Shown here: one piece after another, positions 19,856 to 32,800 of the stretch
Layout: each line of letters begins with the position of its first letter
Numbering within the stretch: position 1 is the stretch's first letter
The notes under the pieces: model-generated
Told to the model about the DNA's origin: nothing
Database searches by the model: none
Seen by the model: only the letters and a program-made list of their open reading frames with translations
Source of the DNA: a virus
Reading direction: 5' to 3' (one strand)
Length of the DNA stretch: 64,000 bases
IMG/VR virus record: IMGVR_UViG_3300037584_002838
Span: 29,781 to 93,780 of that record
Made by a program: the position numbers and the translations under genes

Positions 19856-20191
19856 TCAGAATGTTTTGCCGTGCATAAACTCACGACTTTCATTATATTC
19901 CATTTTAGCAACAATAGCACCTGCAACATCTAAATCTTTACCAAAGGCATAATCCATAATGCGAATTACTGCGTCTGCTAGTTCCTCTTCGAGATTACTA
20001 AACTCCATAATCTTATTTGAAGAAGGATTACCTTCACGCAAAGCCTCTAATGCTTCAGAAATCTCTGCATGAATCAGAGCCATTCTTTCACCATCATTTA
20101 CTTCTTCTTTCCAAAAACCGTGATTAACTGCATTCCTGTAAATCTTCTTTGCCTTCTTATTCCATTCCTTTTCAAAACTCAAATTCTTCAC
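19856..20191 (-). CDS. MazG-like NTP pyrophosphohydrolase
   Basis: LIHAEISEALEA...EEELADAVIR..D...KMEYNESR. Confidence 0.88.
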   Translation of the reverse strand: MKNLSFEKEWNKKAKKIYRNAVNHGFWKEEVNDGERMALIHAEISEALEALREGNPSSNKIMEFSNLEEELADAVIRIMDYAFGKDLDVAGAIVAKMEYNESREFMHGKTF

Positions 20192-20417
20192 CTCTTTTAA
20201 TTGCTAACTTTTCTAATTTAGCCACATGCTTTTTTGGTGCATGTCTTTTTGCCACAACTTGAATCATTGACTTGCAAGTATGTTCTGCTACCGGAATAAC
20301 AGTTGAACAATCAGGACATACCGGCTTTTTTGTTTTATCGCACCTCGTCACTGATTTGTTTTTACCACAGAAATTACAAGTTTCCTTTTTAGTTTCCATA
20401 TTCTTTAATCCTACCAT
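20172..20417 (-). CDS. Small zinc-finger protein
   Basis: CNFC, CD, CPDC. Confidence 0.65.
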   Translation of the reverse strand: MVGLKNMETKKETCNFCGKNKSVTRCDKTKKPVCPDCSTVIPVAEHTCKSMIQVVAKRHAPKKHVAKLEKLAIKRGEEFEF

Positions 20418-20419
20418 AT

Positions 20420-20560
20420 TTATTCCTCCTTACAAATACATCTTGCTTCTAAAGTGCGCTTTGCATCAACAAAATCAACACTACTATGAATATTGTATTT
20501 TGCCGTTGCTTCACAGCCATTACATCTCATTAACATTATTCTTACTTCTCTTCCATTCAT
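20420..20560 (-). CDS. 46-aa Cys-containing protein
   Basis: Manual translation MNGREVRIMLMRCNGC...CICKEE; coupled. Confidence 0.5.
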   Translation of the reverse strand: MNGREVRIMLMRCNGCEATAKYNIHSSVDFVDAKRTLEARCICKEE

Positions 20561-20757
20561 CTAAAATCACCACTTAGAAACTTGTTCGCCCAATCGGAAT
20601 ATCGAGAGAATACAGTAATATCATCACTACTGATTCCCTCGATATTCGTTTCGGGGTCTGTTAGGAATATAACCCTTCTTCGGTCATTGTGCCAAAGGAC
20701 TTCTTTAGTTACACTCCATTCATCTAACGCTTTTGTCATTATCATATACTTATTCAT
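20557..20757 (-). CDS. Hypothetical protein
   Basis: ORF following the helicase. Confidence 0.6.
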   Translation of the reverse strand: MNKYMIMTKALDEWSVTKEVLWHNDRRRVIFLTDPETNIEGISSDDITVFSRYSDWANKFLSGDFR

Positions 20758-20761
20758 ATTA

Positions 20762-22195
20762 TCAACTCTTTGGTCTTGGCCCGCAATAGAATAGATTCTT
20801 CTTTGCTCTAGTAATCGCTACATAGCAAATATTTCTTTCTTCTTTAGGATTTGTAGCCTTTGGATGCGGCATCCTCTCAGTGGCTAAGATATATACATTG
20901 TCAGCCTCAAGACCTTTAGCCTTGTGAACAGTAGACAACATAATCTCTCCTTTGTCATTGTTATCGAATACTCTCTTGATTTCATTTACAATTCCACCAA
21001 CAGTAGTAGCCATAGTAGAGAAAATCTTCAGACATTCAAACTTATCTTCAAGGTTGTTTGCTTGATTGATTTTATCAGCCGCAACCAACTTATCGTAAGT
21101 AAATCTGAAGTCCTGTGTAAGTAAATCTCTAAACTCTTCAGCACCCATATTATCATTCTTGGTAATCTTTCTAACACCATTGATTAGTCCTTTAGTCATA
21201 TCACGACCAAGAACATATGCTGATTTGCCTTGCAGAATCAAATCGTAAAACGCTGAAACTAGAGGCGCATTGTATCTACATAGAACCATGTCACCCTCTT
21301 GAGGATTAAACGGTGCATTTTCAACAACCATTCCAGCATCAGCAGTAGAAGGACAACTAAAGTTTTTGACATATCTATTTGCTTCAGAAACAACATTCTT
21401 AGGACATCTCCAAGTTAGACTTAGAGAAAAACGCTTGATTTCTTTATCGCCTTTTTCTAATCTCTTAACAAATATGTCCATTGAATTAGAATCTGCGCCT
21501 CGGAATCCGTAAATCGCTTGATTTGGGTCGCCCACAATAATACACCTGCCGTTTCCAACACATCTTGAAATCAACTCTCTTTGCATTTCATTGAAGTCTT
21601 GTGCTTCATCAACAAATAGAGTATCAAAGGTAGGTAATGGCATATTTAATACCAAAGGTAGCCAAATCATATCATCAAAATCAATCAATGAAGTATTCTG
21701 CTTGCATTGATTCAAGATTGCTGGAATACTATCAATTGCTATTAACTCTTCACGGTCTGAATTAAACTCGATATTGTATTCATCAATTAGTGAATAAATA
21801 CCTTTTGTGTCCTTTTCATCAATCATGGAACCTTTAATTAAACTAATCAACTTAATTAGTGGTTGAGCATAAAAGTCACGACCAAGTATATCATCAATAA
21901 TATTCTTAACTTTGAAGTTATTGACTTTTGTTCTAATACCTGCGGCTCTTAATGCAGCAAAGCCCAATGCGTGAAATGTTTTTACTTCTACATCATCCGG
22001 TAGTCTTTCTGCTAATTCTAACTGAATAGATTTGTTAAATGCTAAGAATGCTTTCTTTACACCACTATCTCTATTTGCGCCCTCTACAATTGTGAATGTT
22101 TTACCAACACCTGCGCCAGCATTAACTATAATGTGACCTGTGCCGTTTTGGATTTCATCCCATATTGCGTCTTGTTCTTTTGTTCCTGTTACCAT
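20762..22195 (-). CDS. uvrD: UvrD/Rep superfamily 1 helicase
   Basis: AGAGVGKT, TFHALG, VDEAQD, VGDPNQAIYGFRGA, STVHKAKGLE, YVAITRAK. Confidence 0.95.
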   Translation of the reverse strand: MVTGTKEQDAIWDEIQNGTGHIIVNAGAGVGKTFTIVEGANRDSGVKKAFLAFNKSIQLELAERLPDDVEVKTFHALGFAALRAAGIRTKVNNFKVKNIIDDILGRDFYAQPLIKLISLIKGSMIDEKDTKGIYSLIDEYNIEFNSDREELIAIDSIPAILNQCKQNTSLIDFDDMIWLPLVLNMPLPTFDTLFVDEAQDFNEMQRELISRCVGNGRCIIVGDPNQAIYGFRGADSNSMDIFVKRLEKGDKEIKRFSLSLTWRCPKNVVSEANRYVKNFSCPSTADAGMVVENAPFNPQEGDMVLCRYNAPLVSAFYDLILQGKSAYVLGRDMTKGLINGVRKITKNDNMGAEEFRDLLTQDFRFTYDKLVAADKINQANNLEDKFECLKIFSTMATTVGGIVNEIKRVFDNNDKGEIMLSTVHKAKGLEADNVYILATERMPHPKATNPKEERNICYVAITRAKKNLFYCGPRPKS

Positions 22196-22233
22196 TTTTA
22201 TTCCTCATTTTTATTTTTATTGCTTTTTGGAAA

Positions 22234-22420
22234 GGCCACTTTCTCAGTAGGCCGAATCGTGTAATTTTTTACACTTGAATAGGTGGGAGAAGGAGAACGA
22301 TAAATTTGTTTAATTAAACGGTTATATCAATACCTCTTTTGTAGCCCTTGTTCTCAACTTCTCCCGTTGTTGATGAAAAGCATCACAATTATGTGTGAAA
22401 CCCCAATAACACACGATTAC
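22234..22420 (-). ncRNA. Structured leader or small RNA upstream of the helicase operon
   Basis: Closing stem AATCGTGT/ACACGATT, inner GGGAGAAG-GAGAAC/GTTCTC-CTTCTCCC; TATA at ~22450. Confidence 0.45.
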
Positions 22421-22528
22421 TTCTTCACCGGTACTATGGGGTGGGGGAGTATATAAGGGGGTGGAAGGTCGGGCGACCCCCTCTGATTGAGTAAGAAATG
22501 TCTAACAATAGGGCTACAATCTACAATT

Positions 22529-22567
22529 AAAAAAAGCCCCTCACCGGTACGAATACCGATGGGGGGC
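22529..22567 (-). terminator. Hairpin (UUCG loop) plus oligo-T terminator
   Basis: GCCCC..CGGTA CGAA TACCG..GGGGC after an A-tract. Confidence 0.65.
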
Positions 22568-22608
22568 AAAGTCCCGTTAGGGCGAAACAATACTGTCAAA
22601 AGACAATA

Positions 22609-23085
22609 TCATTCTTCAGTATCAGAACCAAGAAGTGACTCTATTGAGCCATCCCAAGCACCGGTCTTGAACTGCTTTGAAAGAGCATTTCGCACCTTCT
22701 TAGATTGTGCCTTAGCATAATCTTCAGCCGATTCAAAAGTTCCGCCGCCGGACTTAGCGTGTTTTAGCGTAACTGCGCTAATAACGCCATCGTAGTTGTA
22801 ATACGCCATAGACGCTTCTTCTACAACATTACAAATCCTGTCAATTGCCACTCTAATAGCGGCAGGTACAGCACTTCTTTGTCCTCTTCGCCCAAGTGGA
22901 GAACCGTCACGACCTTTCAGTAATGCCTTTAGAGCATTAGCCGCCGCTTCTCTTTCATTTGGGTTATCCTGTCCGACTTGAAGATGCAATTCAACAACTT
23001 GTTTCAAAGCACCATCAAGGCTTTCATCTGCATTTAGGTAATCTGTGACCTCGATAACGAGGCTATCCCACTTTACTTCATCCAT
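22609..23085 (-). CDS. Cassette-family protein, paralog 1 (start MDEVKW)
   Basis: Shares KW..., ER, SP..RRG, H.KSGG and WDG motifs with the 26917 and 28561 genes. Confidence 0.85.
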   Translation of the reverse strand: MDEVKWDSLVIEVTDYLNADESLDGALKQVVELHLQVGQDNPNEREAAANALKALLKGRDGSPLGRRGQRSAVPAAIRVAIDRICNVVEEASMAYYNYDGVISAVTLKHAKSGGGTFESAEDYAKAQSKKVRNALSKQFKTGAWDGSIESLLGSDTEE

Positions 23086-23122
23086 ATTCTCATATCCTAG
23101 CCCCCGACTTAGGGGGCACAAA

Positions 23123-23147
23123 CTCTCTATGTTCTACCCATATATAA
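23123..23147 (-). promoter_or_regulatory. TATA promoter TTATATA-N6-GAACATAGAGAG
   Basis: Duplicate of 16619-16643. Confidence 0.7.
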
Positions 23148-23149
23148 AG

Positions 23150-23750
23150 GGAGGGAAATGCTTTTTCTGACAATAGATTCCATTTTGAAAGTGCCTGAAA
23201 TCGAGGGTTTATGTTTTTAATACTAAATTAATTGCTTATTTTCAACGGTGGAAAGATTATTCCACCGGAATAAAAAACGGAAAAAAAATCCATCAAGAAA
23301 CTAAAGGTTTGTGCAACATAGCCCTGAAGATTCTTAGGGTTTTGACATTATTCCATTATTCCACTGTAAATACCCCCCCCACTCTCTCTATAAATCTGAC
23401 ATAGCCCTAAAGAAACAAAGGGGAAGTGCAAGGGGGTGTGTGAGATAGTATTAGAATAGAATAGAATAATAGAATAATAGAATATTATTAAAACTAAGGG
23501 GTTGTGTTACACAACCCTCCAATTTCTCAAAATCTATTCCACTATGGGGTGGAAACTTCAGTGGAAACATCTTTTGGATTATATATTATATTGTATAACA
23601 TATGTATATGGTATGACTATAACTTATATTATACGGTCAATTGAAAGCCATACTTAGAAACATAGTTATTCTATGGTGGTTAAAAATTAGTACCAAACAA
23701 TCGCTCGATAAGACTATTGTTCTTGGTTATTCCTGCTTTGTCAAACGGAA
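23150..23750. other. Non-coding repeat-rich AT-rich region, candidate replication origin
   Basis: (TAGAA/TAATAGAA)n at 23452-23485, many TTCCA/TGGAA, hairpin GGGTTGTGT-T-ACACAACCC, AT tract 23578-23632; near the strand switch. Confidence 0.4.
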
Positions 23751-23758
23751 TAACCTTG

Positions 23759-23799
23759 AAAAAAAGGAGGCAAATGGGGTTTTACCCCCATTTACCTCC
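23759..23799 (-). terminator. Hairpin plus oligo-T terminator
   Basis: GGAGG.AAATGGGG/CCCCATTT.CCTCC after an A-tract. Confidence 0.7.
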
Positions 23800-23827
23800 G
23801 AAATACCCGTCGTATAACATCACCTCC

Positions 23828-24007
23828 TTAGAATACTTCATATTCGTCGACTAATATCTCTCTGTATGTTTTGCTTCTTTCTTTGATTAGGTAGCACTTT
23901 TTACACCAATCCGTGTGTACTAATGTTACTATGTTATCATATCCATCATAGAAATAAGTAATTTTAGGCGCATAACGCTTCCAATGATGTTGGCATTTTT
24001 TTGTCAT
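23828..24007 (-). CDS. 59-aa Cys/His protein
   Basis: Manual translation MTKKCQHHW...WCKKC...; coupled start. Confidence 0.6.
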   Translation of the reverse strand: MTKKCQHHWKRYAPKITYFYDGYDNIVTLVHTDWCKKCYLIKERSKTYREILVDEYEVF

Positions 24008-24189
24008 TCTTCTTCATCTCCAAATATGGCGGGTTTGACATCTGAAATTGGGTGACTCTCAATTTTGTAGCCGCCTAACACTAAATTAACCATTTGCATG
24101 TTTAGCATGAATTTCATGTCCTCTTTGTTATCAGCCCAAAAATGAGCGACCTTGCCTATTATAATAAAATCAGTTCTTCCTTTTGGCAT
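24004..24189 (-). CDS. Hypothetical protein (start MPKGRT)
   Basis: GGAGG RBS before the internal ATG of the track ORF. Confidence 0.6.
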   Translation of the reverse strand: MPKGRTDFIIIGKVAHFWADNKEDMKFMLNMQMVNLVLGGYKIESHPISDVKPAIFGDEEE

Positions 24190-24191
24190 AC

Positions 24192-24554
24192 TTATTCCTC
24201 CTTTTCTTCCTCTTCTTTGGGCCATAGTGGTTCCCCTGTAATGATGGACTTGAAATTAGGGTCGAAACCTTGACTGATGACCAATAACTGTGTTAATTTG
24301 TCATTTTCAAGCAATATCTCTTTGATGTATTCTTCTATCTCTTCAAATTGAGAAAAGTCCATCTCGTAGCCTATTCCGGTTTCGCCTATCCATTCAATAT
24401 AATTGAATATATTATCAAAGTCCTCCATAGTTTTAGGAACATACTGCAATCCTCCTGAAGTTTCTCTCATATGTTCCTCATTGTCCCTACAATAGCAGTT
24501 TAGGGTTCTAGTGCATTTTGGGCATTCTGTTTTAATTCCGAAGTTAATACTCAT
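24192..24554 (-). CDS. Zinc-finger-containing protein (start MSINFG)
   Basis: AGGTGA RBS; CPKC..CYC; the upstream extension in the track crosses regulatory hairpins. Confidence 0.65.
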   Translation of the reverse strand: MSINFGIKTECPKCTRTLNCYCRDNEEHMRETSGGLQYVPKTMEDFDNIFNYIEWIGETGIGYEMDFSQFEEIEEYIKEILLENDKLTQLLVISQGFDPNFKSIITGEPLWPKEEEEKEE

Positions 24555-24667
24555 TCTTTTCACCTTTTTTCTTATTAATAGTGGCCCGTTCAAATAATTC
24601 CGGTTATTTTCCGTGATTTCCCGATTATTTCCCGAACTGTTATTATCCAAAATACGGGTATATACAG

Positions 24668-24726
24668 GGTAGTCAAAGTAACTACCATATGGTTTGGTAG
24701 TGTTCTTTGAAGGAACGGTACGAACC
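24668..24726. repeat. Dyad hairpin site 1 (CCATATGG core 24685-24692)
   Basis: GGTAGT-CAAAGTA-ACTACC ATAT GGTT...CTTTG...AACC. Confidence 0.85.
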
Positions 24727-24728
24727 AT

Positions 24729-24779
24729 AAAAAAATGAAGATTGATGGAGGGCCAATGTAAGTCACCCTCCATCAATCT
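24729..24779 (-). terminator. Long 3' hairpin with loop CCAATGTAAGTCA plus oligo-T
   Basis: 14-bp perfect stem AGATTGATGGAGGG/CCCTCCATCAATCT. Confidence 0.75.
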
Positions 24780-24790
24780 CAAGCACCTAT

Positions 24791-25075
24791 TCAAACAGGT
24801 GCCTCATCCAAATATGCTCTGAGTTCTCTCAGTTGCTCATAGTGTGCATCCTTCCTGAGTATTCCTTGACATGCAAAGTACAGTAAGTGCATGTTGTTGT
24901 CTAAAGCATCTTGAAATTCTTCTTCAGTCATTTCCAACTCAATCCAATAAAACTCGTAATTTTGCATGAATGAGTTGATGATGTGCGCTCTGCGGTCTAG
25001 TTTTGCTTGGCGCATTAACTCCATAACATTCACTTCTTCTTCAGTAGGCTCAGATGGCATTTTTTTTCTGCTCAT
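24791..25075 (-). CDS. Cassette gene, hypothetical
   Basis: Single ORF between sites 1 and 2 with own TATA and terminator. Confidence 0.75.
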   Translation of the reverse strand: MSRKKMPSEPTEEEVNVMELMRQAKLDRRAHIINSFMQNYEFYWIELEMTEEEFQDALDNNMHLLYFACQGILRKDAHYEQLRELRAYLDEAPV

Positions 25076-25102
25076 ACTAATATGGAATAATTCAGGATAT
25101 AA

Positions 25103-25161
25103 GGTAACATCAAAGTTAATGTTACCATATGGTTGTAATCACTTTGAATAGCATTACAACC
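25103..25161. repeat. Dyad hairpin site 2 (core 25125-25132)
   Basis: GGTAACAT-CAAAGTTA-ATGTTACC ATAT GGTTGTAAT-CACTTTGAATAGC-ATTACAACC. Confidence 0.9.
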
Positions 25162-25174
25162 CTCAAAAAAAATA

Positions 25175-25617
25175 ATGAAAAAACGCCGCCTACTTTGAAT
25201 CTCGGACTCACAACGCTCAATTGCAGGGGCTTTAGCATACTTTGTTTTCACCTTGAACCGGTATTGGTGTTGCTGGTATGCTAATTCCTATGAGCGAATA
25301 ACTGCCTTTTTCGTTTCGGCTTTGTTTCTTCATATGAGAATGTGAAGTGGTGAATTGGATTGAGTACCAATAACAATGATAGGATTCACTCCCACTGAGT
25401 TAGCAACGCTCACATTTCATATATGAGCCATTGTACCACGATTATCCATGTCATCAGTTAATGACATCCCTTTTGAGGTTGAAGGACTTTCTTAGAGGTT
25501 ATTGCTCACCCATACGGGCATTACACTAACATAAGCCGAAACTACTCGGAACCGTGTGCGTTATCCCCGTCACAAAAGGATATTCCGCCATCACCGTGTC
25601 GAGGTGCCCCCCGACAT
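25175..25617 (-). ncRNA. Putative ~440-nt highly structured non-coding RNA cassette
   Basis: No ORF of 60 aa or more; TATA at ~25640, oligo-T end at ~25165-25182; nested helices GTTTCGGCTT/AAGCCGAAAC, TTAGCATAC/GTATGCTAA, CGCTCA/TGAGCG, ATGTCAT/ATGACAT; G-U pairs on the minus strand. Confidence 0.7.
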
Positions 25618-25645
25618 TAATTTATGACGGTAATGGGATATATAG

Positions 25646-25686
25646 GGTATTCAAAGTTAATACCATATGGTTGTACTTTGAAAACC
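25646..25686. repeat. Dyad hairpin site 3 (core 25663-25670)
   Basis: GGTATT-CAAAGTT-AATACC ATAT GGTT-GTACTTTGAA-AACC; divergent TATA boxes on both sides. Confidence 0.9.
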
Positions 25687-25704
25687 CTATTATAACCCCT
25701 TATA

Positions 25705-26190
25705 ATGGGTATTAACATGGTAAAAGTAGAAGTAACAACTAATCCACATATACACGACGATAACACAGTACAAAAAACAACTACTTTCAGTTGCGAAACG
25801 AAAGAAGAGTTTGTTAAGATGTGGGAAGATAGAAAATACAGTCCAAAGTCAAGGAATATTAATTGGTCTGCAAATATTGACACACTTCAAATAATGGCTA
25901 AAGAATGGATTGATTTCAAAGATGTCCTATTCCCTCCTGAAGTTGAAGAGTACATACCTACTGAAGTTGATAAGAGGGCGGCTAAGATTTTTCAAATCGA
26001 AACATGGATGGAAAACAACCCTCAATTTCACGAAACCGAGAATTGGCCTATTATTGAGTATTGTATTGAGAGGATGAATGTAGTCGGACACACCAATCCT
26101 GAATTGTTTGATAATATAATGGCTCTATTCATTCTTAATTCAAGACATTACAACCCTGCATGTTTTTACAGGGGGGATGAAGAAGAATGA
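25705..26190 (+). CDS. Cassette gene, hypothetical
   Basis: ORF after site 3 with TATA. Confidence 0.8.
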   Translation: MGINMVKVEVTTNPHIHDDNTVQKTTTFSCETKEEFVKMWEDRKYSPKSRNINWSANIDTLQIMAKEWIDFKDVLFPPEVEEYIPTEVDKRAAKIFQIETWMENNPQFHETENWPIIEYCIERMNVVGHTNPELFDNIMALFILNSRHYNPACFYRGDEEE

Positions 26191-26318
26191 GTTGCTATGA
26201 CTGTGGAAGTAATAAACTAGAGATTGAAGAGAGTTATACAGGCACTTGGTTCATTTGCTGTAAAGAATGCAAATGGGTCGAGATATACGATTTGTATAAA
26301 GCAGATAATGTTGAGTAA
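26187..26318 (+). CDS. 43-aa zinc-ribbon protein
   Basis: Manual translation MSCYDCGSNKLEIEESYTGTWFICCKECKWVEIYDLYKADNVE; ATGA coupling. Confidence 0.7.
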   Translation: MSCYDCGSNKLEIEESYTGTWFICCKECKWVEIYDLYKADNVE

Positions 26319-26354
26319 AGGGGATTGGGGCTTTCGCCCCATCCTCTTTTTTTT
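26319..26354 (+). terminator. Hairpin plus oligo-T terminator
   Basis: GGGGC-TTTC-GCCCC extended stem followed by T8. Confidence 0.75.
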
Positions 26355-26361
26355 GGAACAG

Positions 26362-26416
26362 GGTATTTCAAAGTACATACCATATGGTTTGAGATACTTT
26401 GAATAATTCTCAAACC
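26362..26416. repeat. Dyad hairpin site 4 (core 26380-26387)
   Basis: GGTAT..CAAAGT..ATACC ATAT GGTTTGAGA-TACTTTGAATAAT-TCTCAAACC. Confidence 0.9.
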
Positions 26417-26419
26417 CCT

Positions 26420-26469
26420 AAAAAAAATGAAAACCGGATAGGGGCCAATGTAAGTCACCCCTATCCGGT
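26420..26469 (-). terminator. Long 3' hairpin with loop CCAATGTAAGTCA plus oligo-T
   Basis: 12-bp stem ACCGGATAGGGG/CCCCTATCCGGT. Confidence 0.75.
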
Positions 26470-26481
26470 AATGAATCCAAC

Positions 26482-26742
26482 TCACTTGTCGGATTCAGTA
26501 ATCAATGAGCGAATCTTCTTCGCTTCAGTCTTAAATGCCTTGATTGCTGGCATTACTTGACCTAATACTCTGAAGTTGCAAGTGCCGTCTAAATCGAGCC
26601 TATCGACTCTTAGACCGTATCTGCTGTTCATTCTAGCCAAGAATCTGAGGATTCTTGGTGCTTCTTGTGCTGCTTGTCCACAAAACTCGGCATTTATGCT
26701 ACCGTGCCCTGTTTCAATATCTACATTTACATTTAATGACAT
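26482..26742 (-). CDS. Cassette gene, hypothetical
   Basis: Single ORF between sites 4 and 5; GAGGTG RBS. Confidence 0.75.
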   Translation of the reverse strand: MSLNVNVDIETGHGSINAEFCGQAAQEAPRILRFLARMNSRYGLRVDRLDLDGTCNFRVLGQVMPAIKAFKTEAKKIRSLITESDK

Positions 26743-26787
26743 ATTTACACCTCTTGGTACTATTATGAGATATTAGTGCTTATATCG

Positions 26788-26843
26788 GGGCTTCAAAGTT
26801 AAGCCCATATGGTTGTAACTTTGTTCATGCGAAGCACTTGACC
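26788..26843. repeat. Dyad hairpin site 5 (core 26805-26812)
   Basis: GGGCTT-CAAAGTT-AAGCCC ATAT GGTT..ACTTTG..TGCGAAGCA..GACC. Confidence 0.85.
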
Positions 26844-26916
26844 CTATATAGGCAATTGGACTCGATATTAGTACCTCAAGGGGATTGAGGATAATAACGG
26901 AGAATAGGTGATTACT

Positions 26917-27432
26917 ATGATTATGGACGAAGATAAGTGGACTGAAAGGTCACAAGAAATAAGAGCATGGCTTGAGCATAACGACGCTGGCGCAATGAAC
27001 GCACTAATTGAGCAGACATTGAATGCTGGTGATGCGGCAAGTAGTGATGATGAGAGAAACCGTTTTTGGGAAGCAGTGAGAGCAATTTGCAAAACACTGC
27101 CAAACAGCCCAATCAAGAAAGGTCGTGGCTCAACATTAGAACCTGCAATCCAAGCCTGTGTGGATGGTGTAGTGAATCGCATTCAAAATGCCTTTGCAAC
27201 CATTTCTGACTCAGAATTGATACTCGAAGTAATGCTACCACACGGTAAGACCGGTGGCGCATACGCTGACATTAACGCATTCTCTAAGGATATGGCAATG
27301 AAGGCACAAAGAGTCCTAAAGGCGGCATTGAAAGATGGTCGTTGGAACGGACAAATGACTGAAGATAACTTGACCGGTTTAACTCCACCTGTCAAGGAAT
27401 CTGACAGTGAATCTACGGAGGAAACTGTCTGA
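26917..27432 (+). CDS. Cassette-family protein, paralog 2
   Basis: GGTGA RBS; RFWEAVRAICKTLPNSPIKKGRGS shared exactly with the 28561 gene. Confidence 0.88.
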   Translation: MIMDEDKWTERSQEIRAWLEHNDAGAMNALIEQTLNAGDAASSDDERNRFWEAVRAICKTLPNSPIKKGRGSTLEPAIQACVDGVVNRIQNAFATISDSELILEVMLPHGKTGGAYADINAFSKDMAMKAQRVLKAALKDGRWNGQMTEDNLTGLTPPVKESDSESTEETV

Positions 27433-27538
27433 TGTTATCCGCAATCCCCTTGTAGGCCCATTACATTCATTTCGGCGGGCAACTCATACCAATTAAAATT
27501 AGAATACCTGAATTGTGTCAATGTGTAAGCCGGTAAAT

Positions 27539-27600
27539 CGCATGAGAATTAAGCAGAAGATGAAACCTCGCTTAATTCTCATGCGGTGGCCCTTTTTTTT
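27539..27600 (+). terminator. 16-bp hairpin plus oligo-T
   Basis: CGCATGAGAATTAAGC/GCTTAATTCTCATGCG followed by T8. Confidence 0.75.
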
Positions 27601-27606
27601 ATTCAG

Positions 27607-27674
27607 GGTTGTGACAAATGCTACGCATTATCCAAAGTGTGTCACAACCATATGGTTTGCTTTGCGACAAAACC
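27607..27674. repeat. Dyad hairpin site 6 (core 27648-27655)
   Basis: GGTTGTGACA-[AATGC tac GCATT]-ATCCAAAGTG-TGTCACAACC ATAT GGTTT-GCTTTGCGACA-AAACC. Confidence 0.9.
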
Positions 27675-27685
27675 CGATAGTCATT

Positions 27686-27733
27686 AAAAAAAAGAAAAAG
27701 GGGGAAAACGCCATTTTTCTAGCGTTTCCCCCC
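27686..27733 (-). terminator. Hairpin plus oligo-T
   Basis: GGGGGAAAACGC/GCGTTTCCCCC after A-tracts. Confidence 0.65.
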
Positions 27734-27742
27734 GATTTCTAC

Positions 27743-28339
27743 TCATTCACGGTCAAACTCGTACATATCAGTCATTTTCCGTGGCTGGATAGGGTGAAAT
27801 TCACCAATATACTTGATACCTTCACTTGTACCGTCCCAAATACCGTTCTTCAGAGAATGAACCAATTTCTTCTCTAATTTGTCACAATACCTGTTTAACC
27901 ATCTATCGAACAATATCGCCTCGTCCCAATCTTGTGTATCAAAGTCGTTTATTTTTCTACGGTTTATGATAAACGGATTAAAGCCTAAACTGTGTAAATT
28001 GATATTTGCCCATGACTCCATTGATTCTCTGAATTGATGAATCATACCATCAATAGTGGCTTTAACATCTGATGGAATAATGGTTCTTCTTCTAGTTACC
28101 AAATAATCGTATGGTGTTGCTTTCATTAGGCTTTTTAGAGCAAGCCAATTACATTGGACTTCATAATCCACTCTTCTCGGCCATTCAACCATACTATTCA
28201 ATGAATGTTGAAGCATTGTCATTAAGGTCAGAACTAATTCTACCCTCCATGCTTGTATTTCATCGAATAGTCCTGTTTTGTGAGCATGGGCTAATGCGTC
28301 TATCTTTTTCATCAGTGCTTGCGGCGTTATATTCTTCAT
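27743..28339 (-). CDS. Cassette-family protein, divergent paralog 3
   Basis: W.A.KSLMK..P, P.DVKATIDG and LKNGIWDGT align with family motifs. Confidence 0.75.
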   Translation of the reverse strand: MKNITPQALMKKIDALAHAHKTGLFDEIQAWRVELVLTLMTMLQHSLNSMVEWPRRVDYEVQCNWLALKSLMKATPYDYLVTRRRTIIPSDVKATIDGMIHQFRESMESWANINLHSLGFNPFIINRRKINDFDTQDWDEAILFDRWLNRYCDKLEKKLVHSLKNGIWDGTSEGIKYIGEFHPIQPRKMTDMYEFDRE

Positions 28340-28378
28340 AATACTCCCTTAGTAATATGGAAAAAATCGTCTTATTAG

Positions 28379-28449
28379 GGTAGTTCAAAGTACACTACCA
28401 TATGGTAATAAAATATTTATGAAATAAATACGCTTTGGTTTTTACTACC
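28379..28449. repeat. Dyad hairpin site 7 (core 28398-28405)
   Basis: GGTAGT-TCAAAGTAC-ACTACC ATAT GGTAATAAAA-[TATTTAT gaa ATAAATA]-CGCTTTGG-TTTTACTACC. Confidence 0.9.
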
Positions 28450-28451
28450 AT

Positions 28452-28529
28452 AAAAAATAAGACTACAAAGCGGCACAAACTAAAATCAGAATTGTAATTG
28501 GTATTTTTATTTTAGTTTGTACCGCTTTG
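28452..28529 (-). terminator. Long hairpin plus oligo-T
   Basis: CAAAGCGG.ACAAACTAAAAT/ATTTTAGTTTGT.CCGCTTTG. Confidence 0.65.
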
Positions 28530-28560
28530 GGTGAATATAAGGCTACGGGGGAAATCCGCA

Positions 28561-29049
28561 TCATTCTTCTTCTTCAGCCTCCATGCCGAAGTTTTGTGTA
28601 GTTAAACCGGTACGAGTACCGTCCCACACATTATCTTTCAAACGCCTCTTGAGCGAGTTCACAATAGTAGAAGCCATGTATGCTGAATACTCATCAGCAT
28701 CACTGAATAGGCCTCCGCCGGATTTACCGTGCTTAGTTAGTAACATCGAAATGTTACCAGAAGCAAAAAAATCAGATGCGGCTTGTGAAACTTCATCTGA
28801 TATTGAGTCTAGTACGGCTTGAATCTCAGGTGGAAGTTGGGAACCTCTACCTTTCTTAATTGGTGAATTAGGCAAGGTCTTACAAATAGCCCTTACTGCT
28901 TCCCAAAATCTATCTCTTTCTTCATCACTTGAAGCAACTTTACCCGCTTCAAGAGTTTGAATAATCAAGTCATTCATAGCACCTGCATCATTTTCCTTTA
29001 ACCATGATTCAATCATAGTTACCTTTTCTGTCCATTTTGTCATATCCAT
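28561..29049 (-). CDS. Cassette-family protein, paralog 4 (start MDMTKW)
   Basis: Close paralog of the 26917 gene. Confidence 0.88.
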   Translation of the reverse strand: MDMTKWTEKVTMIESWLKENDAGAMNDLIIQTLEAGKVASSDEERDRFWEAVRAICKTLPNSPIKKGRGSQLPPEIQAVLDSISDEVSQAASDFFASGNISMLLTKHGKSGGGLFSDADEYSAYMASTIVNSLKRRLKDNVWDGTRTGLTTQNFGMEAEEEE

Positions 29050-29117
29050 AGTAATCAACTCCTTTGAATAATGCTTCATTCCCCCGAAGCACTCATATGC
29101 TCTCTGTTAGGGTATAA

Positions 29118-29350
29118 GGTAGGACATTTCATTCGCCAAAGTGCGCCTACCATATGGTTGTGTAGTAATTCATCTATATAGATGGGCTTGTATTAAAATA
29201 CGATGTAAGATTACAATATTAAAAGATAACACTTTAATTGAGTTGAAGGGATTATTTAGATGATTTTTGCTTGTGTTCGATTAAATCTATATATTCTAAA
29301 TTGATTCTATATAGACCCATATAGTAGATTATACAACCATATGGCTTTGT
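29118..29350. repeat. Dyad sites 8 and 9 (cores 29150-29157 and 29337-29344) enclosing a gene-free inverted-repeat element
   Basis: GGTAGG..CAAAGT..CCTACC ATAT GG; CCATATGGTTGTGTAGT pairs with ATTATACAACCATATGG; GGCTTTG after core 9. Confidence 0.75.
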
Positions 29351-29497
29351 CCAAATTTTTATTTTAGTGTATTAACATTAAAATGCCTGCTTTTATGTAT
29401 AAATCATCGAATATTAGCATTTGAATATTAAAGATTTCGCCATTAGGCCGCCATTATTATGTACTATGGCATACTCGGTTAATACGGGATAAGGATA

Positions 29498-29725
29498 ATG
29501 ACGGCTGAAACTGTTGATGATATACTAAGTGGTATCATCAGCATTATTGCAGAACTAAGTAAGGATATTAAATCAAATACAAGCAAAAAGAATATACAAA
29601 CAAGCCAAGATAATAAGGTTAAATTAAAAGAAATAGCCAAAAAACTTAAATCAATTAAAACTAAATTAATAGACTTATATCAACCAAAGAAAACAATTCA
29701 AACTACATTAGATATTAATGAATAA
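29498..29725 (+). CDS. Small Lys-rich coiled-coil protein
   Basis: ORF with AGGA RBS; low complexity. Confidence 0.45.
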   Translation: MTAETVDDILSGIISIIAELSKDIKSNTSKKNIQTSQDNKVKLKEIAKKLKSIKTKLIDLYQPKKTIQTTLDINE

Positions 29726-29856
29726 TTAAATGTTATATTTTTATCGTGGGAATAATAAAGTTAATAAAAAAATGCTGACGCTAGTACCAAAAAAATTCCG
29801 CCACAATTTTTCAAAAACAAATTCTATTTTAAGCAATTAACAGGAAAAGGGTTATT

Positions 29857-30171
29857 ATGACATGGAAAGATGTGTTAAAGTTTGATAGAGCCAAAATGAG
29901 GCAAAGGGCAGAAAGAGAAGAAAAGGAAATTGATGATTTATCACCACACCAATATTCTGGTGCTAAAAAAGACCAAATGAGCCTACTTGCTAGTATAAAG
30001 CGTACAGAAGAAGAACAAGACCATTTAGATAGTCGAAAAGACAAAAGAAGAAAAATGGGTCTTAAAGGTAATGAGTCCTTTCCTAGAAAAAGAAGGAAAC
30101 ATAGGGGAGGAAGAGGTCGATTAGGAGATACAAAACTACTTCCTATACCTAAAGGAAAAAGAGGTAATTAA
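29857..30171 (+). CDS. Basic protein with MTWKDVLK tag
   Basis: N-terminal family motif. Confidence 0.75.
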   Translation: MTWKDVLKFDRAKMRQRAEREEKEIDDLSPHQYSGAKKDQMSLLASIKRTEEEQDHLDSRKDKRRKMGLKGNESFPRKRRKHRGGRGRLGDTKLLPIPKGKRGN

Positions 30172-30172
30172 T

Positions 30173-30583
30173 ATGACTTGGAAAGATATATTAAAACAAA
30201 AAATCCCAACGCAACAACCACAAGGATTTCCAATAGAAGGGAAAATTCATGTATATGACCCAAATATAGGAGATAGTGATAGTTATTGGCTAACATTTTA
30301 CAGTAACGATTGGGATGATGGTCTTGAAATACGAAAAAGAGAAAATTCTCAGTTTCAAAAAGAGGTTGTGGAAAAACATCCTAATTCCCCTCTTGTAGCA
30401 TTTTTTAATAAATTTGCTAAGTTTAGAAGAAGAGTGTCTAAACCAGATGATAAATATGACTTTGATATTACTGATATTCAAATGATTAAAGAACCAAAAC
30501 CACAAGAAATAAAATCAGTAGCAAAAAGTATGGGTCTAAAACTTCATATTAACCCTACTAATATAGATGAGGATGAGTATTGA
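30173..30583 (+). CDS. Protein with MTWKDILK tag
   Basis: N-terminal family motif. Confidence 0.8.
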   Translation: MTWKDILKQKIPTQQPQGFPIEGKIHVYDPNIGDSDSYWLTFYSNDWDDGLEIRKRENSQFQKEVVEKHPNSPLVAFFNKFAKFRRRVSKPDDKYDFDITDIQMIKEPKPQEIKSVAKSMGLKLHINPTNIDEDEY

Positions 30584-30609
30584 AGAACTAATGTATTACG
30601 GTGATTAAT

Positions 30610-30717
30610 ATGACTCGATGCAAATTACTTGACACTTGGTTTGATGCTAAGTCTAAGGAATTAGATAAGGCAGAAAAAGAGAAGAATAAAGATTTGATAA
30701 CAGGTGAGAAGAAATGA
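30610..30717 (+). CDS. 35-aa small protein
   Basis: GGTGA RBS; MTRCKLLDTWFDAKSKELDKAEKEKNKDLITGEKK; coupled to next gene. Confidence 0.55.
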   Translation: MTRCKLLDTWFDAKSKELDKAEKEKNKDLITGEKK

Positions 30718-31040
30718 GTTGGGAAGATATAATGAAAAAAGACTATGTAAATGTAGATGAAGAATTAGAAGATTTAGAAAATCAAGTAGAAGAGTATGAG
30801 CGATTAGCACTCGCTCTCGGTCAAATAGCACAAGTCGCAATAAAAGGTCATATCTATGCTAAAATGCCTGAAGATAAAAGAGAAGTATTCGATAAAGCAG
30901 TAAAGGGAATGAAAGAGATGAAAGAACAAGCCGAAAAAGCCAAAAAAGCATATAATGACGCAATAAAAAATATGGCTGAACTATTGGGTACAGAAAATAC
31001 TGCTAAAGATGTAAAAGACTTTATTTCGGAAAATATGTGA
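30714..31040 (+). CDS. Coiled-coil protein with MSWEDIMK tag
   Basis: N-terminal family motif. Confidence 0.8.
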   Translation: MSWEDIMKKDYVNVDEELEDLENQVEEYERLALALGQIAQVAIKGHIYAKMPEDKREVFDKAVKGMKEMKEQAEKAKKAYNDAIKNMAELLGTENTAKDVKDFISENM

Positions 31041-31049
31041 GATGATATT

Positions 31050-31340
31050 ATGGTTTGGGAAGATGTAATTAGAAAGAGTTTTTTATCAGTAGATAGAGAT
31101 GGTATGATTACTTTATCGCAACAATATAAAGGGGCGAATAAAACAAAATATTCAAGAGAAATGATTAATCACGCACTTAGGCAATTAGGACTTACTTACG
31201 AACAGGCAAATATGAATACTGAAAGTGCAGGGTTATTAGAAATATATCTTAATCGTGGAAATAGTTACTATGCCTATAATCGTAAACAACGAATGAATAT
31301 TATGCGACAAGCCGGTGCGCCATTTTTACAGGATGATTAA
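31050..31340 (+). CDS. Protein with MVWEDVIRK tag
   Basis: N-terminal family motif. Confidence 0.75.
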   Translation: MVWEDVIRKSFLSVDRDGMITLSQQYKGANKTKYSREMINHALRQLGLTYEQANMNTESAGLLEIYLNRGNSYYAYNRKQRMNIMRQAGAPFLQDD

Positions 31341-31341
31341 T

Positions 31342-31710
31342 ATGACATGGTTCGATGTAGTTAAGATTCTAACTCCAAGACAGTTCCTTGAGTCTTTAGA
31401 GATAGATGGTATCATTAAAGGTAAAGCCGGTAAATATGGTACTAACATGGAATTAGTTAGTGATGATATTATTGTCAAGATTAGACAGGACAAGTATGGG
31501 ATGAACAGTGTTAATGTTAATGAAAAGAGGTTTGCATCCCATGACCTAAATAAGATATTAGTAGCGGTAAAGAAGGAATTGAAAGAAGATTCTTATACCG
31601 ATGCTTTACTAAGAGAAGATGGGATAGTGGATTCCGGCAAGGCCGGCATCATTAATATGAGATATTCACCAAAAAAGGAGGATGAAGAAGATGGCGAAGA
31701 AAAAGACTGA
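31342..31710 (+). CDS. Protein with MTWFDVVK tag
   Basis: Internal ATG gives the family motif. Confidence 0.75.
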   Translation: MTWFDVVKILTPRQFLESLEIDGIIKGKAGKYGTNMELVSDDIIVKIRQDKYGMNSVNVNEKRFASHDLNKILVAVKKELKEDSYTDALLREDGIVDSGKAGIINMRYSPKKEDEEDGEEKD

Positions 31711-32800
31711 GAAGAGTCCCTCGGGGGATGGCTATGGTAATACCATAGAATCAGAACCCTTGACATTTAGAAAAGCATACTTAGAGTGGGAAAATAAGTG
31801 TAAGGGTATCAGTGCTAAAGAGATACAATCAGAGGGTAGAAAGGGAGTAAGAAGTGTTCCGCCTAATTTGTTTGAGCAGATTCAAGAGCATGTAACGGCG
31901 GCATTTAGACGACCCGAATCAAGCAATGACGGTACTAAAGGTGCCTATGTTTTGATAGAGGATATAATTAAAGCACTCAAAGATGATAAGTTGTTTTTGG
32001 AAAATGAAAGAGATAATCTTGAAAAGTTCCAGAAAGATATGGGAGTATTCCTCAAGGCTAACAGTAAATTAAATCCAAGTAATATTGAGTTTAATAGACC
32101 AAAATCATACGATGTAGTGAACGGCAAAGTAGTCAATGAAAGTGAAGATACAGTGTCTATTTATGGACATTATGTTGATGATTATTTTGTGGCTAAATAT
32201 CCGAAGAAGAAGTATGAGGTAAATACAGAGTGGTTTAACAGAAATAAAAATACATCTAATCCGCCATACAAACAAGCATTGTTTGGTGATGGCGATTTAC
32301 TTGGAAAAGGTGAAGGCCTTTTAGATGTAATAGAATTAGCATTAAAAGAGTTAGATGAGAAGGCTATCGAACTTTATACTATTGGAATTAAAAGAGCATC
32401 TGCTTTAGCAAGACTACCTTCGGTTCAATCATGGGTTAGACGCAATATCACAAAGAAGCAATTCTATCCTTCTAATAGTGGTAAAATTAATTTGGGCCAA
32501 ATAAGTCAAGCATTGCTAACCGTAGAGTTTCCTATCAAAAACGACATAGAGCAAAGAATAGTAACTATGGCCGCTACGAATAAAGACATTGAGTTTGCTC
32601 AGAAAATAGAGAGATTCAAAATCGGGAGAATAAGTAATCAAGTTATGGCTACTCTCATTAGAGAAGTAATCGCAAGAGGTAAGAAAGAATATATTGAAGT
32701 CAAGAACGGCTACTACTTACAGTTAAGGGGATTATCCGACCCTCCTTCTGAAACATGGAAAGAAATCAAAAAGAGTTGGATGCAACATTTATGGGCGTGA
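31682..32800 (+). CDS. Hypothetical late protein (372 aa)
   Basis: Long ORF; ends ...IKKSWMQHLWA. Confidence 0.8.
   Translation: MKKMAKKKTEKSPSGDGYGNTIESEPLTFRKAYLEWENKCKGISAKEIQSEGRKGVRSVPPNLFEQIQEHVTAAFRRPESSNDGTKGAYVLIEDIIKALKDDKLFLENERDNLEKFQKDMGVFLKANSKLNPSNIEFNRPKSYDVVNGKVVNESEDTVSIYGHYVDDYFVAKYPKKKYEVNTEWFNRNKNTSNPPYKQALFGDGDLLGKGEGLLDVIELALKELDEKAIELYTIGIKRASALARLPSVQSWVRRNITKKQFYPSNSGKINLGQISQALLTVEFPIKNDIEQRIVTMAATNKDIEFAQKIERFKIGRISNQVMATLIREVIARGKKEYIEVKNGYYLQLRGLSDPPSETWKEIKKSWMQHLWA

Follow-up and report, generated by a model that had tools for sequence, protein, structure and literature searches.

Gene cassettes and palindromic sites at the locus

The window, as we call the whole 64-kb stretch of viral DNA that was analyzed, is colinear with a complete contig of 96,234 bases and, judged by its gene content, belongs to a group-B-type magrovirus, an archaeal virus of the ocean. 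Pfam scans recovered the gene set of magrovirus group B (Philosof et al, 2017; PMC5434244): two ATP-dependent ligases (one per gene block), ribonucleotide reductase, a chaperonin, a split family-B polymerase, and halovirus-like head genes. In group-B-type magroviruses, an array of gene cassettes (24667–29352 in the window) punctuated by the palindrome CCATATGG separates the replication block from the structural block. This core occurs exactly nine times in the window, at 24685, 25125, 25663, 26380, 26805, 27648, 28398, 29150, and 29337, in exact agreement with the count of the earlier note, against a shuffle expectation of 0.84 and a largest shuffled count of 4. All nine copies fall inside 4.7 kb, and none was found in the remainder of the window.

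At sites 1 to 7, the core joins two hairpins in the order GG-stem, CAAAG loop, stem-CC, ATAT, GG-stem, CTTTG loop, stem-CC. The earlier note had described twin hairpins at all seven. Both arms are present at each, and the twin hairpin is the predicted minimum-energy DNA fold at sites 1, 2, 4, 6, and 7 (z of −2.9 to −4.7), whereas at sites 3 and 5 the folding predictions slightly favor a competing structure in which the CAAAG and CTTTG loops pair with each other. The stem sequences quoted in that note are correct, as are its cassette orientations (−, −, +, −, +, −, −).

Site 1 (24667–24726; core 24685–24692; z −3.9) lies at a promoter–terminator junction and has a left arm GGTAGT/ACTACC with a CAAAG loop and a long right arm with a CTTTG tip. 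Cassette 1 (24727–25102, − strand) holds a 94-residue open reading frame (ORF; 24791–25075) without a match in Pfam and PHROG searches, a terminator hairpin (24741–24781) with a T-run, and a TATA box at ~25091–25097. Site 2 (25103–25161; z −4.7) has arms GGTAACAT/ATGTTACC and GGTTGTAAT/ATTACAACC. Cassette 2 (25162–25644, − strand), with a T-run at 25165–25172 and a TATA box at 25640–25648, contains no ORF and may encode a non-coding RNA; partial homologs occupy site-bounded gaps in relatives L149, L222, and L212. Site 3 (25645–25697) is a divergent promoter–promoter junction, where the TATA-like TATTATAA overlaps the right arm in its 3' strand. Cassette 3 (25698–26360, + strand) carries a 161-residue ORF (25705–26190) and a 43-residue zinc-ribbon ORF (26187–26318), followed by a terminator hairpin and T-run; the zinc-ribbon ORF has a 94% identical counterpart in L132, where the preceding gene differs.

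Site 4 (26361–26416; z −2.9) is a convergent terminator–terminator junction with a TATA box on neither side, and cassette 4 (26417–26786, − strand) holds an 86-residue ORF (26482–26742) of family F172, which takes another array position in L183. Site 5 (26787–26843), at a divergent junction, has a left arm GGGCTT/AAGCCC and leads into cassette 5 (26844–27606, + strand), with a 174-residue ORF (26908–27432) of family F0. Site 6 (27607–27674; z −3.5), at a convergent junction, has a left arm GGTTGTGACA/TGTCACAACC with an inner mini-hairpin. The 198-residue ORF (27743–28339; family F131) of cassette 6 (27675–28378, − strand) identifies a unit that is present in L152 and absent from L132 and L180. 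Site 7 (28379–28449; z −3.1) combines a left arm GGTAGT/ACTACC with a long right arm that is tipped by CTTTG and contains an inner hairpin. Cassette 7 (28450–29117, − strand) holds a 172-residue ORF (28561–29079), an F0 paralog whose protein is 50% identical to that of cassette 5, with the two genes on opposite strands. Site 8 (29118–29167) has a left arm GGTAGG/CCTACC with a CAAAG loop and lacks a canonical right arm. Site 9 (29330–29352) is a stemless end-site, ACAACC-ATAT-GGCTTTGTCC, whose sequence is conserved at the array's right edge both in the window and in L132, L180, L183, L152, and L161.

Paired stems and transcription context

Across the window and its relatives, the core is unchanged in 242 of 246 sites, and the loop tips follow the consensus R-C-TTT-G-Y, in which R and Y covary. 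The spacing from loop motif to core ranges from 0 to 27 nt. The arms diverge outside the core and loop tips, so any two sites have only ~10 bp of identity in common, which is little for ordinary homologous recombination, above all for inversion. Watson-Crick stems of at least 5 bp are found in 43% of arms as they stand, compared with 11% when arms are cross-paired between sites. In a covariance-model alignment of 150 arms, 92.7% of cells are paired versus 75.5% in shuffles, a value reached by 0 of 500 shuffles; double-change cells number 213 versus 76 in shuffles, and all four pair types are in use at stem positions 4 to 6. The stem covariation noticed at the locus is therefore significant in a larger alignment, and selection acts on site structure and site sequence alike. 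The idea that the two loops kiss finds support no further than the common 5-mer.

Each cassette in the window has its own TATA box and oligo-T terminator. TATA-like boxes, already noticed next to the sites, adjoin the promoter-side arms, runs of 7 to 8 T come before the terminator-side arms, and the window sites fall outside the transcription units. In some lineages, UUCG-like tetraloop hairpins adjoin the arms. These hairpins, together with the identical hairpin-AUAU-hairpin that either strand would yield, are what an RNA-level element would predict, namely a transcript-processing or stabilizing structure that reads the same in both directions. We regard that reading, also raised in the earlier note, as extremely unlikely because the window sites lie between oligo-T terminators and TATA boxes: the terminator-side arms are all past the oligo-T run and the promoter-side arms all upstream of the TATA box. 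Moreover, divergent junctions would go untranscribed, and the whole window has no match in Rfam 15 at gathering score.

The main rival to a recombination function is a regulatory boundary element. Here a viral or host DNA-binding protein would recognize CCATATGG and the loop tips and insulate early-gene units, perhaps by blocking read-through or by timed repression or activation beside the TATA boxes, with shuffling a by-product of short-homology or microhomology recombination between copies. Promoter-side flanks have the consensus Y-T-A-T-A and are TATA-like in 56 of 108 cases, the window sites come right after terminator runs, one viral protein has a TFIIB-type zinc ribbon, and the core and loop are invariant over a deep clade (down to 57% helicase identity), which fits a protein-binding site. 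T4-type phages also link composite regulatory motifs with modular shuffling (Arbiol et al, 2010, PMC2839356; Comeau et al, 2014, PMC4122927), and the recombinase searches described below came back empty. However, the sites occur at all junction types (promoter–terminator, 87; terminator–promoter, 75; divergent and terminatorless, 82; convergent and promoterless, 47) and are thus tied neither to promoters nor to terminators. The variable loop-to-core spacing, with stems that nevertheless stay paired by compensatory changes, speaks for a folded form over a duplex operator. In addition, ~10 bp of identity is scant for homologous recombination, and even more so for inversion, although inversions are frequent and exact. 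On balance, we judge a purely regulatory role unlikely, but a serious competitor.

Cassette shuffling at the core

Among the helicase relatives fetched in a scan of viral contigs, 43 each have one array of 4 to 13 sites upstream of the helicase; helicase relatives at 34–39% identity have zero sites. Five near-complete relatives each have a single array and otherwise 0 to 1 stray cores, and the stray cores examined in fetched loci are inside ORFs and without hairpins. The elements are short, palindromic, intergenic, and multi-copy, as a selfish repeat of REP/BIME or MITE type would be if it spread into the gaps of a tolerant region, with the cassettes not the mobile unit. That explanation is very unlikely given that the elements are confined to one array, with the other intergenic gaps of relative genomes of 84–103 kb free of twin hairpins, that no arrays were seen in the cellular genomes in which they were looked for, and that no Y1 HUH transposase (PF01797) was detected in five near-complete genomes, whereas the control genomes gave matches. 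Furthermore, arms co-segregate with the adjoining cassette, and the two arms of a site differ in history.

The relatives keep neither gene order nor gene orientation across the sites. Among cassette families shared across 48 arrays, orientation differs in 113 of 295 pairwise comparisons and the right-hand neighbor is common to both arrays in 18 of 161, with the comparisons in both counts being non-independent events. Homology-block ends cluster at core positions 7 to 10, with almost none in the near arm, and homology stops exactly at the far edge of the core. Cassette 5 and its two arms (26805–27655) are inverted core-to-core in L132 and L180, with homology ending at both cores and flanks that are 81% identical in the relatives. 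Comparison of L149 with L228 reveals a cassette replacement and an insertion between sites, and in L154 and L187, which are 96% identical, identity restarts at TACC|ATATGG. Breakpoints, including those of the core-to-core inversion, thus coincide with CCATATGG at single-base resolution. Judged by these alignments, units are swapped, lost, gained, and flipped between relatives exactly at the predicted folded palindromic signal. A folded palindromic signal that fences each gene unit in this way has not been described before. The earlier note had proposed that cassettes recombine at these boundaries, and three tests set in advance to refute the idea, on gene order and orientation, breakpoint position, and stem covariation, all favored it.

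Other observations count against reading the sites as recombination sites. Not every breakpoint between relatives falls at a site, some being at gene borders elsewhere, and relative L391 has lost nearly all sites, with site 9 as its sole remaining perfect core, yet retains small genes at the array locus. The absence of any recombinase of a known family also weighs against this reading. A six-frame search of five near-complete relatives for tyrosine recombinases (PF00589) gave zero matches at E ≤ 0.1, whereas 14 of 14 control genomes matched, and serine recombinases of the resolvase/invertase type (PF00239) gave zero in five near-complete genomes. The failure of the earlier note to recognize a recombinase extends to the whole proteome: the Pfam scan found no tyrosine recombinase, no Rep or HUH protein was listed, and no Hjc is encoded. 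The virus does encode ERCC4-type and PD-(D/E)XK nucleases in addition to its two ligases.

We also considered that the sites are replication signals, with unwinding or priming near an origin where strand bias switches and hairpins forming on the displaced strand. The array sits at the cumulative GC skew minimum, where the two gene blocks diverge, and on the strand running 5' to 3' away from the hinge, on both sides, G.T mismatches outnumber A.C mismatches by 32 to 8. If a fork opened at the hinge, this strand would be its lagging-strand template. But nine to thirteen gene-spaced sites, free to vary in number and spacing, are unlike any known origin, gene orientation explains the skew switch equally well, and breakpoints at the sites would be left unexplained, making this a highly improbable account.

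Proposed recombination sites and comparison with known systems

From the sequence comparisons, we propose that the CCATATGG twin hairpins are probably DNA-level boundary recombination sites of the gene-cassette array, with a probability of about 0.6. Each cassette is framed by two arms, and between them lie, in order, a TATA promoter of its own, either one or two small genes or an RNA, and an oligo-T terminator. Junctions between cassettes would be newly made within the 8-bp palindrome of the core, the ATAT hinge being the simplest point, so that each arm moves together with its cassette, and because the core is identical on both strands, a cassette could be joined in either orientation. Joining at cores could result in cassette gain, loss, replacement, translocation, or inversion. 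The arms may act as extruded or single-stranded DNA hairpins, with a protein reading the C-TTT-G tips and GG:CC bases and with breakage and rejoining at the hinge. The enzyme might be a viral protein outside the recognized recombinase families or host machinery; one possible route is structure-specific cutting, for example by the ERCC4-type or PD-(D/E)XK nuclease, followed by sealing by a viral ligase through the self-complementary hinge.

Several known systems share parts of this arrangement. In the T-shaped inverted terminal repeat of adeno-associated virus, two small hairpins are adjacent, and the Rep protein contacts a CTTTG tip. The magrovirus sites resemble it in having adjacent small hairpins with complementary AAA and TTT tips, a structural resemblance only, but they have no enclosing third stem and are internal to a ~95-kb double-stranded DNA genome. 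REP/BIME elements with their RAYT proteins and the hairpin ends of IS200/IS605 are likewise intergenic hairpins with a short conserved motif that are recognized in folded form. However, those elements come with a Y1 transposase, which the magrovirus lacks, and they are genome-dispersed and strand-specific, whereas the magrovirus has one array of symmetric sites. Serine-recombinase invertible segments differ in the resolvase/invertase gene, absent here.

The promoter-early stem-loop (PeSL) regulatory cassettes of T4-type phages (Arbiol et al, 2010; Comeau et al, 2014) are similar in that a large tailed virus has a hyperplastic region whose small, non-essential genes are set apart by short conserved stem-loop motifs; between close relatives, these motifs mark where indels and replacements join, and every gene unit has a promoter and terminator of its own. 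The PeSL itself, in contrast, is a sequence-conserved sigma-70 promoter and terminator stem-loop, with exchange ascribed to homologous recombination. Another mark of PeSL cassettes is that exchange between adjacent motifs gives mini-circles. The magrovirus element is a third component between terminator and promoter that exists without either (at the convergent and divergent junctions counted above), and forms a two-fold symmetric hairpin pair around an invariant 8-bp palindrome. Its stems are conserved in pairing and not in sequence, inversions are common, and the host is archaeal.

As in integrons, there is a cassette array with content that varies between relatives and junctions at the sites, site structure is conserved rather than sequence, crossover falls at a fixed short core, and a distinct sequence-conserved site (site 9 here, attI in the integron) marks one array end. 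Unlike integrons, no IntI-type tyrosine recombinase lies beside the array. The attC site is a single imperfect hairpin with R''-L''/L'-R' boxes and extrahelical bases, whereas the magrovirus site has two hairpins around CC-ATAT-GG, and each magrovirus cassette bears two half-sites. Integron cassettes are mostly promoterless and co-oriented behind a common promoter, whereas magrovirus cassettes have their own promoter and terminator and mixed orientation. More tentatively, and at somewhat less than even odds, magroviruses may carry a dedicated cassette integration and inversion system in which a viral or Poseidoniales-host protein from outside the known recombinase families recognizes the C-TTT-G-tipped hairpins and breaks and reseals the DNA in the ATAT hinge, with site 9 as the fixed entry site. 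If so, this dedicated magrovirus system would be the archaeal-virus counterpart of the integron, differently built.

The virus and the layout of its array

The window encodes a terminase, a portal protein, a prohead protease, and an SU10-type capsid protein, as well as two ATP-dependent ligases, a ribonucleotide reductase, a Cpn60-type chaperonin, ThiF/JAB proteins, and a UvrD helicase. For the missing part of the genome, a colinear complete relative provides a split family-B polymerase, a clamp loader, an ERCC4-HhH nuclease, a PD-(D/E)XK nuclease, and a flap nuclease. This gene set is the same as that of the group B magroviruses (Philosof et al, 2017; PMC5434244). The array of sites and cassettes is positioned at a switch of GC skew and gene direction, between the "replicative" and "structural" blocks of group B magroviruses. 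No tRNA and no Rfam match was found in the window, and megablast of positions 20000-32000 against 50,697 phage records gave no match.

The core palindrome of the sites, CCATATGG, occurs nine times in the window, always within 24685-29344, compared with a mean of 0.84 and a maximum of 4 occurrences in dinucleotide-preserving shuffles, and its one-mismatch variants are at chance level outside the array. Outside the array (window positions 1-24600 and 29400-64000), 6-bp palindromes are strongly avoided, with observed (expected) counts of 0 (16) for GAATTC, 1 (29) for GATATC, 1 (12) for TCATGA, 0 (9) for GTATAC, 0 (7) for CCATGG, and 0 (6) for GGTACC. This deficit looks like restriction avoidance, and because of it the nine copies of an 8-bp palindrome stand out even more.

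The twin-hairpin layout that the earlier note had read from the sequence was borne out: a left stem runs from GG to the CC of the core and carries CAAAG(T) in its loop, the central ATAT serves as a hinge, and a right hairpin starts from the GG of the core and carries CTTTG in its loop. Single-stranded DNA folding predicts the twin hairpin as the minimum-energy structure of sites 1, 2, 4, 6, and 7 (z -2.9 to -4.7), while at sites 3 and 5 a competing loop-with-loop pairing is predicted to fold slightly better. Site 8 has a left arm only and site 9 is stemless. One unit occupies each interval between sites in the window, in the orientations -,-,+,-,+,-,- that had also been described. Runs of 7-8 T on the gene's strand lie directly before the arm on the gene-end side, and TATA-like boxes lie directly outside the arm on the gene-start side; the convergent sites 4 and 6 have no TATA, and the divergent sites 3 and 5 have TATA on both flanks. 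A degenerate site was looked for to the left of site 1 and was not found.

At the other edge of the array, the end-site at 29337-29344 and the right-hand ends of six loci fetched from related virus contigs (L132, L180, L183, L152, L161, and L391) share a distinct stemless form with a conserved sequence, TATACAACC-ATAT-GGCTTTGTCC followed by a T-rich stretch. This form always adjoins the first gene of the structural arm and could serve as a fixed point of entry. Between sites 8 and 9, an AT-rich gap (29158-29330) contains repeated palindromes of the CTATATAGA type, and TCTATAGA is present 6-8 times in loci L370 and L400; these palindromes may be a second signal at the array edge, possibly a promoter or an origin. 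Two terminator hairpins, at 24741-24781 and 26437-26472, differ in their stems and have an identical loop, GGCCAATGTAAGTCACC, making them a second element that conserves structure and loop, and a similar loop, GATGTAAGTCA, follows a site in L183. In some lineages, a small hairpin of the CCC-TTCG-GGG tetraloop type abuts the outer end of the arm on the gene-end side and shares its G's with that end (3540-3580, 4230-4270, and 4700-4735 in L173; ~3500 and ~3820 in L228). The cassette at 25162-25644 has no ORF and holds a candidate non-coding RNA on the minus strand; sequences partially homologous to it at the nucleotide level are present in L149 (4512-4669, likewise a gap between sites without an ORF), L222, and L212.

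Distribution and conservation of the sites

A search pattern for full sites, consisting of CAAAGT, a gap, CCATATGG, a second gap, and CTTTG, matches more than 100 IMG/VR contigs at up to ten positions apiece, many of these contigs having lengths of 90-97 kb, and at least three cores are present in 74 fetched loci. Five relatives rated 91-100% complete by CheckV each have a single cluster of 6-8 sites in 3.4-4.1 kb and 0-1 further cores elsewhere; the stray cores that were checked in fetched loci are internal to ORFs and lack hairpins. When the neighbouring UvrD helicase was used as the starting point, 4-13 sites were found upstream in 43 fetched relatives, down to 57% protein identity, and none were found with helicase homologues at 34-39% identity. 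The helicase relatives without sites have an upstream flank that is too short, with the sole exception of L391, which retains only the end-site of the site 9 type and decayed cores such as CCATATGC, and in which the small genes are nearly all co-oriented. Decayed sites in this locus (3799-4017 and 6967-7082) include a hairpin followed by CCATATGC-TTTG, and at one place CCATATG provides the ATG of the next ORF. A host origin of the sites was also considered and rejected on the matches listed from 596 billion bases of cellular genomes. Among these there were scattered singles in unrelated taxa and no arrays, and the one archaeal match (L234) has neither hairpins nor homology.

The stems of the arms vary in sequence and remain paired. 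In 553 distinct arms with CTTTG, the arm's own 5' strand contains a perfect Watson-Crick partner of at least 5 bp in 43% of cases, compared with 11% for a 5' strand taken from another site, and where a stem of at least 4 bp was found, CTTTG is in the loop in 377 of 382 arms. MAFFT alignment of whole sites or arms does not bring the 3' stem strands into register, and a covariance model of one arm was therefore built from a fixed-geometry seed of 13 arms with identical geometry; it collected 177 arms, of which the best 150 were scored. In these best 150 arms, paired cells make up 92.7% compared with 75.5% in shuffles, cells changed on both sides number 213 compared with 76, and the covariation score is 0.384 compared with 0.110, in an alignment that is fitted to the model and so biased towards it, with the independent test of own and foreign stems giving a concordant result. 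None of 500 shuffles reached the paired, double-change, or covariation values, and controls with slid partners were far lower. The stem covariation claimed earlier is thus significant, and at stem positions 4-6 the pairs UA, AU, GC, and CG all occur.

The tip of the loop is conserved as R-C-TTT-G-Y, a C:G-closed TTT triloop atop a short distal stem, and its R and Y covary (A:T 182, G:C 119; 323 Watson-Crick pairs compared with 198 expected). Of 246 cores flanked by CAAAG and CTTTG, 242 read CCATATGG. Internal stem mismatches, read on the strand running 5'->3' away from the hinge, are G.T in 32 cases and A.C in 8, which suggests that each arm has been selected to fold on this strand, symmetrically on both sides. 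The proposal that the two loops kiss gained no support, as the flanks of CAAAG and CTTTG are no more complementary than chance (101 compared with 94.5, and 66 compared with 62). Loop kissing or a single long central hairpin, the alternative fold predicted at sites 3 and 5, was accordingly rejected as the selected structure.

Exchange and inversion of cassettes between relatives

The flanks of L132 and L180 have 81-92% nucleotide identity with the window, but most of their cassettes differ, two cassettes of the window are absent, and the cassette with a gene of family F0 is oppositely oriented. The reverse complement of window positions 26740-27720 aligns core to core with L132 7790-8780, with similarity lost beyond both cores and the arm with an inner mini-hairpin nearly identical. 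In an all-against-all comparison, 99 of 450 homology blocks start no more than 20 nt past a core, compared with ~19 expected. At single-base resolution, block ends are most frequent at core positions 7-10, so that the homology takes in CCATATGG and one or two further bases, and almost none are in the near arm. Therefore, the arm stays with its own cassette and the crossover is in the core. Closely related pairs show the same kinds of change: between L149 and L228 (~89% identical), one cassette has been replaced and another inserted between sites, and between L154 and L187 (96% identical), ~130 nt of lost identity ends where identity resumes at TACC|ATATGG.

In 48 arrays whose direction was set by their flanks, the families of cassette genes are found in either orientation (for example, 11:5 for F1, 10:3 for F6, and 36:19 for F0). 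For shared families other than F0, orientation differs in 113 of 295 pairwise comparisons and the right-hand neighbours have a family in common in 18 of 161, both being counts of pairs rather than of independent events. Some breakpoints are away from sites; for example, a small zinc-ribbon gene (26187-26318) is common to the window and L132, and the preceding gene is different. Plasticity is likewise seen at the start of the structural arm, which lacks CCATATGG, at 29879-30602 and 31071-31341 compared with L152; in this comparison with a relative 92% identical, a segment of ~720 bases is replaced and a 96-aa ORF (31050-31340) is absent.

Nature of the sites and their significance

Distinct canonical sites fall into all four classes of junction between promoter (P) and terminator (T) sides, with 87 P|T, 75 T|P, 82 P|P, and 47 T|T. 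The element is thus present with or without a neighbouring promoter or terminator, and it is not part of either; P|P outnumbers T|T to the extent expected from a single net divergence in each array. Arms in the window are located beyond the oligo-T run and 5' of the TATA box and do not belong to the transcription units, and the sites probably do not act as RNA. A regulatory role is possible. The consensus just outside promoter-side arms is Y-T-A-T-A, so that the arm is contiguous with the promoter, and the sites could be protein-bound regulatory boundary elements, with recombination among their many copies as a by-product, as has likewise been proposed for the promoter-early stem-loop (PeSL) cassettes of T4-type phages (PMC2839356, PMC4122927). 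We consider this explanation, the principal rival, rather unlikely. It differs from the one that we favor mainly in what selection maintains and not in the observed pattern.

The favored explanation, to which we assign a probability of roughly 0.6, is that these are DNA-level boundary sites of cassettes, at which DNA is broken and rejoined. It best accommodates the invariant palindromic core, the structure-conserved arms with their invariant tip, the single array per genome, the independence from promoters and terminators, and the exact exchange and inversion of cassettes from core to core. With a self-complementary hinge and core, any pair of half-sites could be joined either way round, which matches the near-random orientation of the cassettes. 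The arm sequences differ, and two sites consequently share only ~10 bp and a 5-nt loop motif, which disfavors ordinary homologous recombination as the main route. This small shared identity would favor either a specific protein or breakage triggered by structure, with rejoining through the palindromic hinge. In the second route, the structure-specific nucleases and two ligases of the virus could supply the activities.

In agreement with the earlier note, no recombinase is recognisable: Pfam scans of all ORFs of at least 75 aa in the window and the missing third of the genome found no integrase, resolvase, transposase, or Rep. Five near-complete relatives were also searched in six frames with the Phage_integrase, Resolvase, Y1_Tnp, and Hjc profiles; nothing was found at E<=0.1, with matches in control genomes. 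The commonest cassette gene family, F0, has 95 members in 75 array-bearing sequences (74 loci and the window). It encodes a helical protein of ~160-210 aa with an acidic C-terminal tail, and is often present in more than one copy per array and in both orientations; in the genomes inspected, one copy lies next to the UvrD helicase and not in the array. The window has three paralogues, at 22609-23121(-), 26908-27432(+), and 28561-29079(-). F0 was evaluated as a candidate recombinase and is not regarded as the enzyme. It has no sequence match in Pfam, PHROG, or PDB and no usable match in the protein atlas, and its predicted fold is an all-helical bundle (pLDDT 88.5) with only generic three-helix structural matches (Z <=8.3 over 59-71 residues). 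Foldseek gave nothing at E<=0.001 and weak Cas1 matches with a probability of at most 0.13. Conservation of D, E, or H reaches 90% at no position, and no catalytic-type residues are kept.

Integrons and PeSLs already provide examples of cassette arrays that are shuffled at structured or regulatory motifs, but the magrovirus array fails the defining features of both. The magrovirus literature that we searched does not mention palindromes, hairpins, cassettes, or intergenic repeats, and a text search of the literature for CCATATGG returned unrelated papers only. To judge from this search, the array is the first of its kind for an archaeal virus, and a dedicated enzyme, if one exists, would make it a categorically new system.

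Both the magroviruses, which are among the most abundant archaeal viruses in the surface ocean, and their hosts are uncultured. The array points to an archaeal recombination or boundary mechanism that operates without any recognised recombinase. An enzyme, if found, would represent a new structure-specific DNA-joining activity; if there is none, the array would be a clean natural case of hairpin-triggered breakage and palindromic rejoining shaping a viral genome. In this single, sharply bounded array, swapping, inversion, and replacement of small genes with no known function take place at a defined 8-bp point. The array therefore marks the place of fast-evolving magrovirus genes, probably for host take-over or counter-defence, and the site provides a simple sequence rule with which such genes can be found and catalogued in metagenomes.
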